DNA of 64,000 nt from the NCBI GenBank assembly GCA_000004695.1, contig CM000155.2, positions 2,400,001 to 2,464,000 on the forward strand, read 5' to 3'. The notes under the pieces were generated by a model. That model was not told where the DNA came from. It searched no databases and worked only from the letters and a program-made list of their open reading frames with translations. Below are positions 46,845 to 58,783 of this stretch, piece after piece (positions within the stretch are counted from its first letter, which is position 1; each line of letters opens with the position of its first letter). The position numbers and the translations under genes were made by a program. This DNA comes from Dictyostelium discoideum (taxonomy: Eukaryota).

Positions 46845-47502
46845 TTATTGCATAAGTTTATGTTTATTTAATTCTACATTCTTTGAATACCTAAAACTAT
46901 AAAATTTATAAGTTTCTGGTCTCTGTTTTGTTCCATAATTTCCTAAAAATTGTTGATCAACTGGAACAATATGATTCTCAAATCCTCTTTTTGTCATTTC
47001 ATCAATAAAATATGAGACACCCTAATTAAAACAAACAATAAAATAAAATTAGAAATTAGAAATTAGAAATTAGAAATTAGAAATTAGAAATTAGTTATAC
47101 ACTTTTGTATTTCCAGGTTTTCTTTTTTTTTTTTTTTTTTTTTTTAAAAAAATAATAATTACATCTCTGTCATCTGATAAAATTTCATAAAAAATACCAT
47201 CCTCTTTTAAAAACTTTTGAATAACTTTAATTAAATTGCCAACACTTAACATTGAATAAGTTAATTCACTTCCAAAAATAATATCATATTTTGTATCATC
47301 TGTATTTGTATCAATTTCATCCCAATTTAAATTAATAACTTTAGTTTTATTTCTTATATTTTCTAAATCTAATGATTTATCAACACTATTTGCTTCTTCA
47401 TCATCACTATCAAATCCATCTTGTTGTTTTGCATTTAATTCAATATTATATTTTAAATTTTCAACTAACTAATAATAATAATAATTAAATAAATAAACAA
47501 AT

Positions 47503-47549
<47 letters not shown>

Positions 47550-47917
47550 TACTAAGAATGATTTAAGTCTTACAGGATTCAAATAATCAGATAATGTAAC
47601 ATTTTTTGAATAATAAGCAGAAAGGATACCTGGTAAACCTGTACCACTACCTAATTCTAAAACTGTTTTATCTGTAAATGCATCTTGATTCTTATAAACC
47701 CATCTTGATAAAATAATTGCTGCATCCCATGTAGAACAACCAATACCACCTTCAATGATTGACATTTCCCTTAAGAAGATCTCCTTTTCCCATTCTCTTT
47801 CTTTTTTATCATATTTACCGAATCCAACAGTTCTTCTTTTATAATGATTGGCTCCTAATGCATATTCTTTCCAATCAATACCTAAATTACCCATTTTTTC
47901 TCTTCCGTTTAACATTT
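46845..47917 (-). CDS. Class I SAM-dependent protein-lysine methyltransferase-like protein (Methyltransf_16 / METTL21 / FAM86 type) of about 274 aa. Three exons: 47917..47574, 47468..47163, 47021..46845.
   Basis: Exon 1 has the motif-I region GGIGCSTWDAAIILSRWVYKNQDAFTDKTVLELGSGTGLPGILSAYYSKNVTLSDYLNP. Exon 2 has LVENLKYNIELNA...NLNWDE...YDIIFGSELTYSMLSVGNLIKVIQKFLKEDGIFY (motif post-I/II, the D/E-x-x-Y region). Exon 3 is GVSYFIDEMTKRGFENHIVPV.... Introns are gtaaga..ttattag and gtaatt..ttaattag. Intron 2 carries (AGAAATT)6. Confidence 0.8.
47051..47092. repeat. (AGAAATT)6 heptanucleotide tandem repeat in intron 2 of the methyltransferase gene.
   Basis: agaaattagaaattagaaattagaaattagaaattagaaatt, six perfect units. 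Confidence 0.9.
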
Positions 47918-48077
47918 TTTACTTTAGTTTTTTAATTGTTTGTAAACAATTTTAATTAAAAAAAAAATAAAATAAAAAAAAAAATTAAAAAAAAAAAATA
48001 TCGTTTTTTTGAAAAATAAAAATAAAAAAAAAAAAAATAAAAAATGAAAAAACGAAATTTATTTTTATCTTTTTTCA

Positions 48078-49662
48078 ATCAGAACTGATGATTGTAAATT
48101 ATCATCAAATACATTAAAATTATAATGATTTTTAACAGCTGTTATTTTAAAATTTAATAAAATATTTGAAATTGCAATATAAATCTCATCACTTGAAAAA
48201 TTACAAGAGTTGCTTTTAAAAAAGAAAAAAAAAAAGTTAGTATTTGGTTGATAATTTTTTTTTTCTTTTTTTTTATTACTTACAAATTAATTGATTGGTT
48301 ATTATAATTTAAAAATCTTTTTGGATTAAAATTAAATGGATCATTAAAATATTTTTCATTTAAATTCATTGACTTATGATTTATAATTATTTGGGAATCT
48401 TTTGGAATAAAATAACCATTTACCAAACTATCTTTTTTACAAGTAATTGGTGACGATAATTGATCCACTGGATTTAACCTTAAAACTTCTTTACAAATAG
48501 AATTTGTAATGGGTGTATATGATTTATCAGATAGTTTTATAATATTTTCCCCAACACCATTATATAAAAGTTTTGTATTAATAACGGATTTCAATTCATT
48601 AAAAGCTAAATATTGATAGTCTTGATCTTGTGCAATTAATACAAAAAAATTTTCAATAACTTTTGATATACTTTCGGATTTATTTAAAATATAGTCTGTA
48701 CATTTATAAACTACTTGTTTTTTAATTTTTTCTTTTGTTTCAAAACTATTTTCTTTATAAATAATAATATCCATAAAATCTTTTAAACTAATTTAAATTA
48801 AAGTATAAATTGTAAATAATATTATTTATTATTAAATTATAAAAAAAAAAAAAATCAACTAACCTTTGATCAATATTTGATATATGGTAATAAAATTGAT
48901 TTTCAATAAAATTAGTTATTGAATTTAAATCACTAGAATTTGACTTTTCTTTATTCTTATTAATTTCATTCACCAATTTCATTATTTTTTTTATTTCTTT
49001 ATAATTTTCATTCTTTAAATCAATATTAAATAATAATTTAAAGATAATGGAAAATGAAAAAATTGAACATAATAATTTTGGTTCAAACTGTAATAAATAG
49101 TTGTTAATAATAATTTCCGTAAACTAATAATAATAATATTATTATATTATAAAAATTACCTCTTTATTGTTTTTTATACTACAATTCATTGACTGAATTA
49201 AATTAATTGTACTTTCATTAAAAACCAAATTTATTAAATTTGATTTTAAATTTAAAATAAAAATATCTCTTTTAATATATTTAGGTTTTTCTTTTATAGT
49301 TTTTTTCATTTCTTTTTCAATTAAAGGATCACTAATTATTACTGTAAATACTTCACCTATCCAAACTCTAAAAATTCCTTTTTTAAAATAATTTTCTAAT
49401 TTGTGAAAATATAAAATTTTATTTTTACCAATTTGTAAATTATTTCCAAAGAATGGTATAGGAAAACTTGGACCATCTAATTCATTTTTAAATTTTGGTC
49501 TATACAATATATACTTATTATTTAAAAAAAAATATTAAAAATTTGATTAATTCTTTTTTTTTTTTTTTTTTTTTATAAACAATTTTCAATAATAATTACA
49601 CATTTAATAAAAAATTGAAACATTAATATTGAAATAAATATAAAAACAAAAGTTTCAATCAT
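48078..49662 (-). pseudogene. Cytochrome P450-like locus, probably a pseudogene or highly degenerate paralogue. It has an N-terminal membrane anchor, a Pro-rich hinge, a K-helix ExxR and PERF-like motifs. It also has an in-frame TAA, no canonical I-helix, and a degenerate heme-binding loop.
   Basis: Exon 1 (49662..49600) MIETFVFIFISILMFQFFIKC|gtaatt. The next segment (49513..48864) reads YILYRPKFKNELDGPSFPIPFFGNNLQIGK...GIFRVWIGEVFTVIISDPLIEKEM, the P450 N-terminal PxxGN/hinge pattern. A single in-frame TAA at 49144..49142 sits in the same frame that continues to ...HISNIDQ, and no phase-compatible GT..AG pair removes it. Exon (48787..about 48296) has CKEVLRLNPVDQ (ExxR), GYFIPKDSQIIINHKSMNLNEKYFNDPFNFNPKRF (compare xGYxIPxGT..W.DPxxFxPERF). 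The last exon gives FNSCNFSSDEIYIAISNILLNFKI where FxxGxRxCxG is expected. The Cys is kept but Gly/Arg are lost. An AGxDTT-like I-helix is not detectable (IAQDQDYQ). Confidence 0.65.
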
Positions 49663-50059: not shown

Positions 50060-51353
50060 TTAAGAAATATTATTATTGTTATTGCATGAGAGATATAATG
50101 AATAGATTCTATCACATTGCTTTAGGTGTTCTATTGTTTCAACTACGCAATTTTTCATAGAACATGACCTTTTATTTAAGTTGGGATATTCTTCACCATT
50201 CAAAAATGCACATTTATTTGAAACATAACAAAAATTTCTAGATTTTTCACTTTCTTTACAAAGAGGAGTCATTATTAAATCTTTTGTAACACATCTATTT
50301 GTTGAACCATCACAAATTTCATCATCATACAAGCAACCATCGTATCTACAATTAAAGGTTTTAGTTTCATTTCTTGGTAGACATTTAAATTCATTTAAAT
50401 TTGGTTTCACTTGTTTACACTAAAATAAAATTATTATTATTATTTAAATTAAAATTAGTTGTTTGTAAATAAAAATTATTAAAATATTAAAATTTTAAAA
50501 AAAATAATTACAACTAAAGATTTTGAAATATCGCATTGATCATTTGGTGTAGAATCATGACCAAAACAAGTTTGACCCCTTTGTAAACTATACTTTTCAA
50601 TACACTTACCACCTGCACAAACAGTACTTAATGGACATTCAAAATTAAACGAACAAGTGGAACCAATGGTTTTAACTGGAACACATCTTGCATTTGGACA
50701 TCCGTTCTGACTGTAGTTTAAACCACAAATTGAAATTGCATTACAATAAAATTCACTTGGACAATCATATTTATCTATACATTCTTGTGTAGTATTTGTG
50801 CATATTGAATCTTGGCATTTTAATGACCCAACACATTGGTGATTAAATTCACACGGCTTATAGATTATTAAATAAATAAAATAACCTTATATAATGTTAG
50901 AGTACTAATTTTTTAAATAAATAAATATTATTATAAATAATTGTTTTATAAAAAACAAAAACATACCTCACCATAATAAGAAAATTTATAATCAATACAA
51001 TATTGTTCTTTATCATTTCCACTTGGAGAAAAACAACTTAATCCTTGTTTACAATCACTATTAAAAATACAAGGTTCTCCTAGACTTTTTCTATTTTTGC
51101 AAACATAAACTAAATCATCATCACTATCAGAATCTTGCAATTGATCTGCCATTGTTTCATTTTGTAATTGACAAGAATGACCCATTGAACATGGTCTTTC
51201 TAAGTGTTCATCAACACATTCTTCACCTGGTCTAATACATTCTAATATTTTGGGTTTATAAAGATGAAAATCATTTAGTAGTGGTAAATTATTTGATTTT
51301 ACCAAATTTAATAATGCAATAATAATTATTAATAGTAGAAATAATATTTTCAT
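50060..51353 (-). CDS. Secreted cysteine-rich protein of about 363 aa with about 40 Cys in repeated CxxxxC...C modules and an N-terminal signal peptide. Three exons: 51353..50967, 50856..50512, 50419..50060.
   Basis: Signal peptide MKILFLLLIIIIALLNLVKS. Exon 1 ends ...SYYGE|gtatgt. Exon 2 starts at tctataag|CCGTGT, reading PCEFNHQCVGSLKCQDSICTNTTQECIDKYDCPSEFYCNAISICGLNYSQNGCPNARCVPVKTIGSTCSFNFECPLSTVCAGGKCIEKYSL.... Exon 3 starts at ttattttag|TGTAAACAAGTG, reading CKQVKPNLNEFKCLPRNE...CDGSTNRCVTKD...SCSMKNCVV. All phases are 0. Repeated motifs of the GEPCxxNSDCKxGLSC type resemble Dickkopf/colipase/EGF-like disulfide modules, but I cannot make a confident family call. Confidence 0.65.
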
Positions 51354-52127: not shown

Positions 52128-55100
52128 TTAAAAATCATCATAATCATTACCTAATTTTACATATTCTTGAAGTTTCTTTCTGAAATTATCATAACCACTA
52201 TCTAATTGTTTTTGTAATTCAGCACCATCTTCTTTTGTGAGGGAAGCATTAAATTTCAAACCGAAATCCAAAGTTTTAGAGAATTCTTTAATGACTTCAC
52301 TAAGTTTTTGAATGTGTTCAGCATTATGATTTTGATATTGACCTTCAGCAAGGAAAGAGGAACAAATTGCCAATGGACCAGCGTTAACTTGTAAGAGTAA
52401 ACAACCTTGTAAATGAATTTGAAGGGTTTTAGTATTTGCAGGACGAGAATTTAATTCAGCCTTTAAGATGGTCACTTTCTTTTGAATCAATTCGATTGAA
52501 GCTTCGATTGGAGTTAATTCGATCTCTTCTTTCTTTACGATTGGTAATCTCTTTTTCAAGTAAGGGAAATAGTTTGGAGTGGTTAAAATGATTTTCTTTT
52601 TCCATTGTTCAGTTACGTTCTCGCTGTATTGAGTTTTACCATTCTTTGTGAAAGGAATTTCAAAGATGAATTTATTAAGATGAGTATTTTGTTGGAAAGG
52701 TGTAGTTCTCTCTTTTAATTCCTCTGGTAAGAGATAAGGATCCACTGAAATGATTTGAATGTAAATATGTTTAACATCTAAACTTGATAGATCCACTGGT
52801 TTATTATTTGGTAAGAGATGGAATTTATCTTCACCAAATTTATCACAATATTGTTTCTTTAAACGTTCGGATAAATCAGAAAGACGGACATAGTTATTCT
52901 CTTTGTAAACAAATTCTTTACCATGTAAATCTGGAATTAAATCTTGACAATAGAAAGCCACACGATAATAATTTGAAAAGATTCTTTGATTTACAACATT
53001 CTCACTAATGATTTGATTACAAAGTAAGACCAACTCTTGATAGGCATCTCTTTGTTTGGTCCAATCTTTTTGATGTTGATAAGTTGGTAATAAGAGACGA
53101 TAGGTTTCAGCTGCGGATTCAAAGTAACCAGATTTTTGAATTTGAATTGCATCCTTTAGAAGATTAATGAAACCAGTATCGGTGAAATGATCCAATTTAC
53201 AAATTTCACCTTCAACATCCTCCAACAATGATAGATCTGGTAGAGTTAATTCGTTGGCAACATTTGGTGAAACTGTAGTGAAATCGGTGGCTAATAACTC
53301 CTTTGGGAAACGATTTAATAATTTTAGATAACCACTAACCAATGCTGCTGCAATGATTGAAACTTGTGCAGCTTCTTCCATTGACTTTTGTTGTTTTAAA
53401 AATTCTTTAAAACTCTTTAACAAAGTGATACGAAGATCAGGACTTTCAATAAAGGTATTTGATAGATTATAGTATAGATCAGCTTTCATCTCTGGATCAT
53501 AGGAATGTTGCATAATCTTTACATTATTTTTAATTACACCGAATAAACGTTCTTTTAATTCATCTATTTGTTGAGCTATAGTTGGTTGAGTACGAGTAGC
53601 ACCATTTGATGATTGTTGAGAACCAATTGATGGTCTTGATGTCGATGTTGTTGTTGTTGTTGATTTAACATTACCTGATGAAACGCTTGTAGAGTATGAA
53701 GTTTTCAATAAAGAGTTATTACAATTTTGTTTAACAAACTTTGCAATTGAATCTAAACATGCATAGAGATAAGAGAATACGATTTCAACTGATTCAGTTT
53801 GAACATTCTTTTCAACAATTTCATTAAGAATTTGAGAGATTGCAACGGTTGAATGTAATTTCATACGTGAGAAATGACCCATCTCTTTCAAATTATTATA
53901 AATCATTAAATAGATTAAAGTGGTAGCATATTGTCTACTTGGTGAATGTCTACTACAACAATATTTGAAAACCAATTGAGTTAAATTTTCACAGATTGAA
54001 TTATTTTGTTTGAATAAAACATGTTTGAATTCACCAACCAATGTTGCCAATACACTAAACACAGGTTTAATTACAGAGAATGAAAGATCCTGTTTCAATA
54101 ATTGTAAAATGACACGGAATAGAATATGATCGGTATAAGCTACTGTAGTACCTTTTAAAAGATCCGATTTAAATTCTCTAATGAAAACAGTGAAAGCATT
54201 CAAAACGGTTAAAGTTACCTCTTGACAAAGATTACCATACATCATTTGAATTGTTTCTTGAGTAGTTGATCCTTGAGTGAAATCAACAGTTAAGAAAGTT
54301 ACACTACTTGCAAATGCACGTAATCCAGGATTTGGTGATTGTTGAGAATAAGCAGAACCAGTTGACTGACCTAAAACATTTGATGTATCTTTATTTACAT
54401 TTAATAGAGGTGATTGACTACCATTAATTGAATTTGAATTTGCATTTAAATTGCCAATATTTTCTTTATTATTTGAAGTTTGTGATGGTGAATTCATACT
54501 ATTTTTCATACCAGTTGAAGATGCTAATTGTTGTTCAATCATTTGTTTTGCTTTATCAGGTTTAATATTTGAAACATTTTGTTTTACACTACTTTTACTT
54601 GGTTTTTCTTTCTTTTTACCAGGTGAATCAGTATTGGCATCCAATGAAAGATTTGATTGATGAGTTTGAATTGATTTTGAACTACTTTCTAAATCGTCAT
54701 CTTTTTGATTGTATTCTTTTGCATAATCGAAAATTGATAAACAATTTGTAAGAATTTGGAAAAAGATAACATTATTTCTTGGAGTTTCTTTCTTCCACCA
54801 ATCAGAGATCGTATTGGTATTATTTAAATTCTTTACGATATAAATGAAACAAGTTAACCAAGAACGTTGTTCCTCTTGATCGAATTTACTAATGTAGGCA
54901 TCATAATGATAGACAATGATTGGAAGCAATGGGAAGAACAATGCTGCTATTCTTTCTCTCATCGCTGGTGAATTGTAGAGTGGATTTGTATCGATTTTCG
55001 ATATTATCTCACGAAGTGTATTGATTACTTTTAATCTCATCTCTTTATCACGAGCTGGTATCACTGCCGAGACCTCTTGTAACATTAAACCAATTATAAA

Positions 55101-56727
55101 ATGTTTTCTATAGAATACTTGGAATAAATCTTGAATCGATGGGAATGGTGATATTGGTGCGGGTGAATTCAATGCAATAAAAGAGTCATTTGATGCGAGT
55201 ACTCTGAAAAGACGTGATTTCAATTCGGTTAATTCCATAACGGTATTGGAACAATCTAAACCTGCAATATAATTTCTAATGATACGGAATACGAAACCAC
55301 GTGACATTATATCCAATAGATCATTGATAAAATGACCAATATTAACAATGAGTACTTTTGCAACCAATTGTTTTGCACCCTTTAATTGAACTAATAATTG
55401 ATCGAATAAAAAGCTAAATCTATTTAAAATCTCTTCACTAAATCTATTGGTACGATTACGACCTGATTTTAATTGATCACGATTTTGAATATCAGCAATC
55501 ATTGATTTCTTTATTATACCAAATAAAAACCATGAATATTGAATTGATAATAATATTAAATCATCTTGTCTTAATTGATTTGGATTTGGTATTGTTTGAG
55601 TTGTTGATGATGATGATGATGATGATGATGGTGTTGGTGTTGGTGTTGGTGGAGTTAAATTAGTAGTTGAAGAATTTTGTAATGATGATGACGATGTTGA
55701 TGATGCTGGTGGAGGTGATTGAACTATTGGTGTTGTAGTAATTGTTATAGTTGAGGATGAAGTGGTTGAAGCACTATTACCTTCTAATAATTGATTCCAA
55801 ACTTGAATAATATTATCATACAATGAAAAGGAGTGAGAATTTTCACTATTAAATACATAGGTTATATATGAAGTTAAAACATCCTCTGGTACAGAATCTA
55901 ATAGATTCAATAAGACATTAAAAGAATTTGCAGATACTTCAGCAGATAAACTTGTAATTGATTTAAATAATAAACGAATGATTGATGGGAAGAATTGAGT
56001 TTTTAAAGTATTTGGTACAGAAGGTAACTTTTTAATATTTTCATTTAAAAGTGTATGATTTGATTCAATCGATTCCTTTAAGAGATAAGCCAATGTTGGA
56101 TCTTGAGGATAAAGTGAAGAGATAACTCTAGTTTTGAAAGAGAATACCGGTTTTTTATTATCGACCCAAATCTTATGATTGATGGTATCCTTTGAATCCT
56201 TGATATCCTTTGCCTCTTGAGCTAAATAACGTGGGGGAAATACAGTGCCAACTGGTCTCTTATATTTACCATCGCAAATGATACGATCTTGTTCAAACAA
56301 TCTAACCACACTATAACCCAATGGAGTATGCATTGGATTCTCGGATTTCTTTGATTTCTTACAACCTAAATGATAAAATGTCACCAAAAGATGATGATTA
56401 GCCGTTAAATTGGATGGTAAATTAATTTTAATTTCATCAGAGAATTTTGGTTTCTTATTATGATAAACTACAGAGGTCAAGAATGAACAAGTCAATAAAG
56501 GTGTTGTACTTGTACCATGTGTATTCTTCATACCAATGGCTGTGACACTACTATCATCCTCCATCAATTTCACTTCTAAGAATATATTTCTAGCACTTCC
56601 TCTGTCACTTTTAAAATTGGTTAAATTTACACTCTTTGGATAAAAATACAAAACATTTGAAAATGTTAAATGTGGTTCTTTTGATTTTAATATTAATTCT
56701 TCATTACAACTATTATCTGTATGATGA

Positions 56728-56758
<31 letters not shown>

Positions 56759-57644
56759 TATTATTACTATTATTATGATGATAATCAATACCATTACTAC
56801 TATTATTATTTACTCCACTATTATTATTACTACTACCACCACCATTAGTATTATTACCACCACCACCACCAATTGAATTTGAGATTGAATTATTTGTAAA
56901 ATCATTTTTATCACCATCTCTATCTTTTAAAATTAAACTATCACCAGATGCGCTACAAGATATTTTTGAATTGAAATGAAGTATTTCTTTAATGATACCT
57001 TTACCATCTTGACCACTTTGAATTTGTGGTGGTAGAGTGTTTGGTATTTTAGTACGTAATAAATAATCGACTCTACCATTTACATTTTCATTATATAAAT
57101 ATTTATCATCACCAATCGATGATGAAACTTGTAAGATCTTTAAAATACATTCAAATAATGGATCTTTTGATGCTGCGCTACTACTAGATTTCTTCTCTTT
57201 ACTAACGAATGAATAGAGTTGATCAGATTTTGCTTTTATGAAATTGGTAACTCTAATTTCTGCTTCACCTTGATCGAAATTGAATTTTCTATTTTGGTCA
57301 AACAATTCCACACAACCCCAAATGAATGGTTGTTTAAATTTACCTAATCTTGAAACTCCTTCCTTCACCTCTGATTGAATCTTTGTTAATTCCTTTGCTT
57401 TTGGTGGATTAAAATAATGTTTTGTAGTTTCTTCTGGATCACCCAATATCACCTTATCAAAACAAATCACTAAATATAAATCTGAACTCTTTTCACATGA
57501 AAAAATACATTTTTGAATCTTTGTTGGTAATTGATTATCTAATGGATTAATTTGATTTAATGAATTAACTTGTGACTTTTTTTTTAAAAAAAAAAAAAAA
57601 AGAATATATATTAATAAAAATTTTAATATGATTTTTGTATTTTG

Positions 57645-57687
<43 letters not shown>

Positions 57688-58783
57688 ATAATTACATTTT
57701 TTGGTAATAAATCTAAATTTGTACCTAAATCAAAATGAAATTCTTCAGAAATAATACCAACTTCAGGTGATTTAGAATCGGAATCATCTACTTTATTTGC
57801 ATCAAATATAAACATTCTACCAAAAAATGGTTCAAAATTACCAATTTGTGGTTTAAAATCTGTACATTCTACTTTAAATTGAAATTCACTTTTTTTTTTT
57901 TTTTTTTTTTTTTTTTTATTAGTTTATATTTAATTTATATATATATACATATACATATAAATAATAATAATAATACTTACATATTTTCTAAAATTTTTTT
58001 ACCAACTTTTGGTGGATTAATAGTTGGTGATTCATCATTAATATAACAAGTTTGAAATAATGGAATTCTATTTGGAGATTTCATAAATTCAATTGATTTT
58101 TGATCAGGAGTTGGTTGAGTTGAGATTGCAATGATATCAGGATTTAAATCTTTTACAGAATCAGTTGGTGAGATTGAATCGAATTCACCATCTACTGAAT
58201 AGTTTTGAGATTGTAGTGGTTTTAAAGGTTGTGAATTCGATGGTGGTGGTAATGGATCACGAGTGACAACCGTCCAATCTTGGTTAAAGATATTCAATGA
58301 TTCTTGAACACCTTTGGGTAGTTTATCCATAATTGATGTAACCTCTGTTGGCACATTATTACCAACCAAATTTGTAACCCTTTTCTCTGTTGTCAATGAT
58401 AACAGGTCTGGTATTACTGATATCTTTAATGGGTCATTTATAATTGCTTTAGTAAAGAACGAATCTTCATAATCTTCAAATTTATATTCAATATCGATTC
58501 TACTCTTTTTTTTATCTGTATTATTACTTGATGGTGTAATTGGTGATACATTTACATTATTTGATGTATTACTTAAAATTGGTGTGCTGCCTGATGTTGG
58601 GTTATTATTATTACTATTTGGATTTGGTGAGGTTATTGGTTGTCCAAATTGTTGGCTTGCTCCAATTGGTGATTGCGACACTGACACTGAGGATGTAGAA
58701 TTATTGGTAGTAGATCCTACCATTTTTGATGTTGTTGCTGCTGATGTTGAATGACTATTGTTACTCATGGATGATGTATCCAT
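52128..58783 (-). CDS. DOCK-family Rho/Rac guanine-nucleotide exchange factor of about 2150 aa (DHR-1/C2-like region and C-terminal DHR-2/DOCKER domain). Three exons: 58783..57981, 57888..57696, 57575..52128.
   Basis: Exon 2 reads IEFQFKVECTDFKPQIGNFEPFFGRMFIFDANK (compare the DOCK N-terminal EPLFGSLALYD motif). The C-terminal 500 aa carry the DHR-2 signatures: YYRVAFYCQDLIPDLHGKEFVYKE, KHIYIQIISVDPY, FIFEIPFTKNGKTQ, EQWKKKIILTTPNYFPYLKKRLPIV, LTPIEASIELIQKKV, IHLQGCLLLQVNAGPLAICSSFL. Junctions: at|gtaagt..aaaaag|t, aat|gtaatt..aaaaag|tca. The poly(A)-containing intron 57695..57576 is read through in the track ORF as FFFFFFF. The 5' exon (MDTSSMSNN...KKILENM) is Ser/Thr/Asn-rich. Internal low-complexity inserts include GGGGGNNTNGGGSSNNNSG and poly-N, poly-T/S/P. 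Confidence 0.92.

Follow-up and report, generated by a model that had tools for sequence, protein, structure and literature searches.

In conventional cytochrome P450s, the heme propionates are held by Trp/Arg of the C-helix, Arg/His of beta1-4, and the Arg of the Cys pocket, while the FxxGxRxCxG bulge cradles the thiolate, the Ala-Gly of the I-helix packs on the heme face, and the E-R-R triad stabilises the fold. Heme-less proteins with a P450 fold have so far been described as bacterial helpers of glycosyltransferases. In one of these, EryCII, there is no C or C' helix and G and H are incomplete, while helices I, J, K, K', and L are conserved together with the C-terminal sheets (PMC3391682). 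The PDGAF family, to which proteins of the EryCII/DesVIII type belong, is described as combining the P450 fold with the absence of heme, its members having the role of chaperones (PMC11703216); they are bacterial, soluble, devoid of the Cys, and encoded beside their glycosyltransferase partner. Another bacterial group comprises noncanonical CYPs whose axial ligand is Ser, Sec, Glu, Arg, or yet another alternative, and whose characterised members still bind heme (Nguy et al. 2024 preprint, PMC11703216). For D. discoideum itself, the CYP inventory holds 41–42 full-length genes and 13 pseudogenes named with a P suffix (Chen et al. 2019, PMC6524965, supplementary file 2). Our literature search found nothing specific on eukaryotic heme-less P450 pseudoenzymes.

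Here, we describe a P450-like gene located in a 64,000-nt stretch of the D. discoideum genome (assembly GCA_000004695.1, contig CM000155.2, positions 2,400,001–2,464,000; hereafter the window). An earlier note on this DNA had interpreted the locus as a recently inactivated P450 paralogue or, alternatively, as an allele or sequencing error hiding an unusual but functional P450-fold protein. The gene lies on the minus strand within very A+T-rich, Dictyostelium-like DNA and spans positions 49662–48065, starting with an ATG at 49662. The spliced model has five exons and four introns, all GT..AG and with 86–93% A+T, and yields a CDS of 1293 nt and a product of 430 aa (Table 1). Every element listed in the earlier note is present in this model, i.e. 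a P450 start made of a transmembrane anchor (MIETFVFIFISILMFQFFIK) and the hinge GPSFPIPFFGN, the ExxR (KEVLRL) and PxRF (FNPKRF) motifs, and a loop reading INFNSCNFSSDE, where FxxGxRxCxG is absent and the Cys is kept with the Gly and Arg lost.

Table 1. Features of the P450-like gene, in window coordinates.
Feature	Coordinates	Strand	Details
Exon 1	49600..49662	-	63 nt; ATG; N-terminal transmembrane anchor MIETFVFIFISILMFQFFIKC; helix 2–25 in AF2
Intron 1	49514..49599	-	86 nt; GTAATT..TAAG; 93% A+T; phase 0
Exon 2	49160..49513	-	354 nt; Pro-rich hinge GPSFPIPFFGN, A-helix, beta1 region
Joint of ~27-aa C-helix deletion	49267-49250	-	codons 104–109, in exon 2
Intron 2	49088..49159	-	72 nt; GTAATT..ACAG; 88% A+T; phase 0; carries TAA, TAA, TAG
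Exon 3	48864..49087	-	224 nt; E to G helix region
Joint of ~21-aa F/G deletion	48964-48941	-	codons 181–188, in exon 3
Intron 3	48788..48863	-	76 nt; GTTAGT..TTAG; 92% A+T; phase 2
Exon 4	48284..48787	-	504 nt
I-helix segment	48684-48664	-	NKSESIS, in exon 4
K-helix ExxR	48489-48478	-	EVLR, in exon 4
beta1-4	48453-48442	-	SPIT, replacing LPR/H; in exon 4
PxRF	48324-48313	-	PKRF, in exon 4
Intron 4	48213..48283	-	71 nt; GTAAGT..AAAG; 86% A+T; phase 2
Exon 5	48065..48212	-	148 nt; shortened Cys loop (F)NSCNFSS
Cys385 codon	48205-48203	-	in exon 5
L-helix	48190-48149	-	DEIYIAISNILLNF, in exon 5
Stop codon	48067-48065	-	TAA, in exon 5

The earlier case for inactivation was built on a TAA codon at 49144–49142. 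This codon does exist, and it lies in the frame of the upstream exon. It had been taken for a single stop, but the same frame also contains TAA 49141–49139 and TAG 49126–49124. Nor can the claim be sustained that no phase-compatible GT..AG intron removes it. Specifically, when all GT..AG pairs spanning the TAA are enumerated, a donor at 49159 (GAG/GTAATTTT) and an acceptor at 49088 (following TTATTACAG) define a phase-0 intron of 72 nt, which joins ..NNKE/FEPKLL.. with the frame open on both sides. The orthologous loci L001 (from another D. discoideum assembly), L002 (D. dimigraforme), and L003 (D. citrinum) have intron 2 at an identical position (lengths of 72, 72, 76, and 69 nt across the four genomes, window included). 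In all four, the spliced CDS has one terminal stop only, the three in-frame stops of the window being intronic, while a retained intron 2 would bring 2–4 in-frame stops into each genome. In D. dimigraforme, the terminal AG of this intron is its sole AG. The 72-nt splice also produces gap-free colinearity with conventional P450s (..KNNKE/FEPKLLCSIFSFSIIFKLLFN.. versus ..SGEPFEPRYY..FKYIFNE..), and the same NNKE/FEPK junction is found in the protein P0001 (98% identity). The earlier note had listed transcript evidence for an intron that takes out the TAA in consistent phase as contradicting decay; such an intron is indicated here by comparative evidence. Because the stop codons sit inside an ordinary intron, the locus is not a dead gene.

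Public protein models support this structure. An NCBI entry from a D. discoideum assembly (KAM9944417.1) is an exact match to the spliced 430-aa protein, and proteins of 430 aa from 3 further D. discoideum or D. cf. discoideum assemblies fall into the same 90% cluster. These records also bear on the idea that an allele or a sequencing or assembly error masks a normal P450, which we regard as having a vanishingly small probability. The only thing that speaks for such an error is the suggestion of the earlier note; against it, the independent D. discoideum assembly has the same intron with TAA TAA and TAG, the exact spliced protein exists in NCBI from another assembly, and the deletions that set the protein apart fall in the middle of the continuous exons 2 and 3 and are common across species.

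An older model of window positions 49662–48065 (P0002, UniParc UPI00004E4A7A) has 417 aa. It places a mini-intron of 36 nt at the TAA, thereby inserting FTEIIINNYLLQ, and omits GKNKILYFHKL and LKDFMDIIIYKEN. We rejected this mini-intron on the grounds that its acceptor is missing in D. dimigraforme, that it is shorter than all other introns at the locus (58–216 nt), and that it would add 12 residues without counterpart in conventional P450s; the 417-aa model is probably mis-spliced. Two further NCBI models are shorter still, i.e. 371 aa in D. dimigraforme (P0003, L002 5766–7313) and 256 aa in D. citrinum (P0004, L003 5350–7046). Both are suffixes of full five-exon ORFs of 430 codons that are intact in the two genomes, and their N-terminal truncation looks like a gene-calling artefact rather than decay.

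Projecting the exon model onto L001–L003 reveals an intact 430-codon ORF in all three, within a conserved gene order (DOCK, a ~355-aa unknown, P450, Methyltransf_16, and Xpo6). The ATG and the exon 1 donor (AAATGT/GTAA) are kept in each. Exon indels are multiples of three only, while introns vary in length and are rich in gaps, and CDS identity is 86–98% compared with 68–90% in aligned intron columns. One D. citrinum intron (intron 3, L003 6120–6335) has grown to 216 nt through a long AAT/ATA trinucleotide repeat, the same intron measuring 62–76 nt in the other genomes.

The earlier note had proposed to test for relaxation of dN/dS. Pairwise dN/dS is about 0.2 (0.16–0.23), as obtained with NG86, a simple estimator that we applied here to a very A+T-rich genome and calibrated on a neighbouring gene; bootstrap upper limits are ≤0.37, and no replicate reaches 1. 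For this calibration we used DOCK, the neighbour, whose C-terminal exon has an omega of 0.05–0.09 at a dS of 0.37–0.43, and the dS of the P450-like gene is equivalent (0.32–0.47). Constraint extends across all regions of the gene (pN/pS 0.16–0.37). When the observed substitutions are placed at random, the D. dimigraforme ORF stays free of stops in 0 of 5000 replicates under both the AT-biased and the uniform model, and that of D. citrinum in 0 of 5000 (AT-biased) and about 3 of 5000 (uniform). Together, the intact ORFs, the dN/dS values, and the simulations identify the locus as a selected gene.

For orientation, the nearest conventional P450 pair, P0035 from D. cf. discoideum (L005 1501–3126) and P0040 from D. 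dimigraforme (L004 1501–3150), has an omega of 0.53 at a dS of 0.395, i.e. its protein evolution is much faster than that of the truncated gene. The L004 locus contains a second P450 gene in tandem, from 3572 onward.

Given these data, the earlier conclusion of a recently inactivated P450 must be abandoned, and we hold a dead paralogue to be extremely improbable. It is true that the stops are in frame with exon 2, that the canonical heme and I-helix motifs are absent, and that the NCBI models of D. dimigraforme and D. citrinum are short. Against this, a conserved canonical intron contains the stops, four genomes have an intact ORF of 430 codons, proteins of 430 aa are annotated in four other D. 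discoideum or D. cf. discoideum assemblies, dN/dS is low at a dS equal to that of the neighbour, and neutral drift closes the ORF in >99.9% of simulations. The short models are suffixes of intact ORFs, and the deletions are common to all species, which makes them old, predating the species split, and incompatible with a recent inactivation.

A transcribed relic without a function of its own, where constraint comes from overlapping regulatory sequence or where divergence is too short to reveal decay, would agree with the restriction of the family to the D. discoideum species complex, and no spliced transcript-derived ORF is seen among the members of its cluster. We nevertheless find it quite improbable, as it runs against a synonymous divergence equal to that of the neighbouring gene (dS about 0.4) when the nonsynonymous divergence is not, against constraint in every region, and against an ORF intactness that is highly nonrandom.

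The product of the gene has the three-dimensional P450 fold. It matches PF00067 with 119.4 bits (gathering cut-off 22.8, E=2.2e-34), the best stretch covering residues 195–383. Our comparison of motifs with 48 conventional relatives, in an alignment of 52 sequences (A2), finds that the E-R-R triad is kept (E314/R317 in ExxR, P369/R371 in PxRF) at columns that are invariant in 48/48 relatives. The L-helix is almost identical to the conventional one (DEIYIAISNILLNF versus DE.Y...SNILLNF) and occupies residues 386–402 in the AF2 model.

Five differences set the family apart from these relatives. The ~27-aa deletion takes out the C-helix Trp (present in 46/48 relatives) together with the Arg/Lys (47/48), and another ~21 residues are deleted from the F/G region. 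The I-helix had been reported as lost, which is correct for the AGxDTT motif but not for the helix itself, as the homologous stretch is present as CTDYILNKSESISKVIENF. At this place, (A/G)Gx(D/E)T(T/S) is not found: the A-G-x-D/E-T positions read N-K-S-E-S(I), i.e. AGTDT has become NKSES, with N-K standing for A-G, the acid retained, and Thr exchanged for Ser, or for Asn at this alcohol position in D. dimigraforme. The beta1-4 Arg/His of 46/48 relatives is Ile here. The Cys-pocket signature FxxGxRxCxG is also missing from the loop, which reads NF----NSC---NFSS and retains the F and one C. This pocket is 7–12 residues shorter, through deletion of the invariant Gly (48/48) and of Gly+2 (45/48), and the place of its Arg (48/48) is taken by N, Y, N, or a gap among the orthologues. 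Likewise, the coil from PxRF to the L-helix has 13 residues, compared with 20 in P0035.

A missed exon cannot supply what these deletions remove: both large ones are internal to continuous exons, and poly-A/T sequence makes up intron 4. Intron 4 interrupts the Phe382 codon directly before N-S-C, and no coding potential for the absent Cys-pocket residues is found within it. A sliding splice site at an ancestral intron, which we also considered as the origin of the Cys-pocket deletion, finds no support, as neither of the two closest conventional paralogues has an intron at this place. A tblastn search with four conventional P450s found no second P450 copy or parent gene in the window.

The Cys of the shortened loop, Cys385, is present in all orthologues with variable neighbours (NSC, YSC, NYC, -TC). 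The earlier note had cited conservation of the F-N-S-C loop in a family of expressed paralogues as a second argument against decay, and across the orthologues an F-x-x-C loop is indeed kept. In A2, Cys385 falls in the column of the invariant heme Cys, and in the AF2 model it occupies the L-helix N-cap, the usual site of the heme ligand, within a loop of pLDDT 67–69. Its placement differs, however, among three alignments (MAFFT with 5 sequences, MAFFT with 52 sequences, and HMMER against CYP3A4), which makes it an ambiguous homologue of the proximal ligand. Moreover, all seven Cys residues are conserved at this shallow divergence, and the conservation of Cys385 is therefore not specific.

An alternative is a working heme-thiolate P450 with a minimal pocket, in which Cys385 would ligate the heme for an unusual reaction, possibly one without O2 activation. 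This possibility draws on the invariance, the alignment, and the N-cap position of Cys385, on Glu252-Ser253 as a pair resembling the usual acid and alcohol, on the intact ExxR and PxRF, and on an omega of 0.2 that denotes tighter constraint than that of the nearest conventional pair. Yet the sequence lacks the three basic propionate anchors, the C-helix Trp, and the Gly and Arg of the pocket, and it has a Lys in place of the I-helix Gly that packs on the heme, an Asn at the alcohol position in D. dimigraforme, and variable residues around the Cys. The disagreement among alignments, the conservation of all seven Cys, and the low confidence of the loop model also count against it, and overall we judge a minimal-pocket enzyme unlikely.

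The loss of all canonical propionate anchors, along with the Lys that replaces the I-helix Gly, points instead to a protein that has most likely lost thiolate-ligated heme binding. Two observations sit less well with a heme-less protein: Cys385 is kept in all orthologues, and the acid and alcohol of the I-helix (E-S) are kept in 3/4 species.

The nearest conventional P450s found are dictyostelid microsomal proteins (P0025 from Tieghemostelium lacteum, P0035 from D. cf. discoideum, and P0040 from D. dimigraforme), and the likeness includes homology over the full length (PF00067), the transmembrane anchor, the Pro hinge, ExxR, PxRF, the L-helix, and a first intron after the anchor. This intron 1 is the only one whose position is approximately common to the conventional paralogues P0035 and P0040. 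By contrast, scores are only about 150 bits for these P450s, at 28–34% identity, whereas the orthologues reach about 900, and the protein of the window is 50–55 aa shorter than they are; it is without the C-helix WxxxR, part of F/G, AGxDT, the beta1-4 R/H, and FxxGxRxCxG, and its gene has three additional, lineage-specific introns. The annotated CYP pseudogenes of D. discoideum are likewise P450-derived, noncanonical, and part of the same genome, but our gene differs from them in having no disabling lesion after splicing and in being under purifying selection.

The anatomy of loss is very similar to that of EryCII/DesVIII-type PDGAF proteins, which are heme-less as the Dictyostelium protein probably is: the P450 fold persists with no canonical heme apparatus, the C helix has gone along with parts of F/G/H, and I, J, K, L, and the C-terminal sheets are retained. 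Unlike PDGAF proteins, the Dictyostelium protein is eukaryotic and membrane-anchored, keeps a Cys, has no glycosyltransferase neighbour, and is encoded with spliceosomal introns. Membership of the PDGAF family was excluded on this basis, i.e. a eukaryotic, intron-containing gene without a glycosyltransferase beside it, whose nearest relatives are dictyostelid P450s. As those relatives are eukaryotic P450s, the resemblance to EryCII-type proteins would be convergent and of independent origin. With the noncanonical CYPs it shares a departure from FxxGxRxCxG within a recognisable P450 fold. In theirs, a pocket of normal length has its axial residue substituted, whereas here the pocket is 7–12 residues shorter, the anchors are lost, and a Cys is kept. 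We did not place it in the class with alternative axial ligands, as in A2 a Cys stands in the axial column and the pocket has been shortened, not substituted.

The family is narrow. An exhaustive HMMER search of 1.84 billion cluster representatives returns its own cluster at 800 bits, and the next at 179 bits. All members found belong to D. discoideum, D. cf. discoideum, D. citrinum, or D. dimigraforme, with annotation gaps possible, and the homologue matches in D. firmibasis, D. purpureum, and more distant dictyostelids are conventional P450s. Among the top other hits that we read (P0083, P0084, P0085, and P0087), none is a distant orthologue with the same deletions, all having a normal FGxGxRxCxG. 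In several dictyostelid-like P450s from public databases (P0005, 591 aa; P0083, 861 aa; P0084, 1164 aa), two or three complete P450 units are fused head to tail, and these most likely represent merged gene models of tandem arrays and not real multi-P450 proteins. A literature search found no paper describing the atypical features of the locus, and a search under CYP520B1 and DDB_G0291702, names guessed from ID proximity only, found nothing.

No functional hint is found among the neighbouring genes (DOCK, the Cys-rich unknown, Methyltransf_16, and Xpo6). Upstream on the same strand, window 50060–51353 (-) has a syntenically conserved gene of unknown function (~355–363 aa) with Cys-rich ORFs; it has no Pfam family above threshold, its only hit, to a Dickkopf C-terminal subdomain, being subthreshold (E=0.0019, 18.7 bits versus 27). 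Further along, a single ORF of 1895 aa at window 52128–57815 (-) represents the large 3' exon that belongs to the DOCK-family gene in synteny, and its constraint between species is very strong (dN/dS 0.05–0.09). On the other side, the Methyltransf_16 (lysine methyltransferase) gene at window 47469–47915 (-) begins about 150 nt downstream of the P450 stop, and this tight same-strand spacing is kept in all four genomes. No tRNA was found in a scan of the window.

Overall, the present analysis shows how the gene is built, that it is conserved and under purifying selection, and that its product has a P450 fold with the motif losses given above. The explanation that we favour, and consider reasonably probable, is that of an intact five-exon gene with an anchored P450-fold product that is most likely heme-less and non-catalytic at the ER membrane. 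Under this explanation, intron 2 would be spliced out with its stops to give a 430-aa P450-fold protein anchored in the membrane by its N-terminus. The C-helix, part of F/G, the Ala-Gly of the I-helix, the beta1-4 Arg/His, and 7–12 residues of the Cys pocket were lost before the divergence of D. discoideum, D. citrinum, and D. dimigraforme. The protein, having most likely lost heme binding, would then have a non-catalytic role at the ER membrane, e.g. by binding or scaffolding a partner protein, or by binding a ligand; both the role and the partners are purely inferred. As for the fallback offered in the earlier note, its unusual but functional P450-fold protein is supported, while the allele or sequencing error has no part in it.

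For annotation, the locus encodes a 430-aa protein, and it illustrates that in-frame stops beside GTAA..AG in A+T-rich Dictyostelium DNA are usually introns. The family is confined to the D. discoideum complex and its function is one that we have deduced, and its significance is for these reasons moderate; the host organism is genetically tractable. Should Cys385, as seems unlikely, ligate heme without the FxxGxR bulge, Gly+2, the C-helix, and the propionate anchors, the result would be a so far undescribed P450 architecture. We give a little better than even chances to a eukaryotic, ER-anchored, heme-less P450 pseudoenzyme that is maintained by selection and convergent with bacterial EryCII-type proteins. 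If true, a membrane-anchored eukaryotic derivative with the same structural losses would represent an independent repurposing of the P450 fold.
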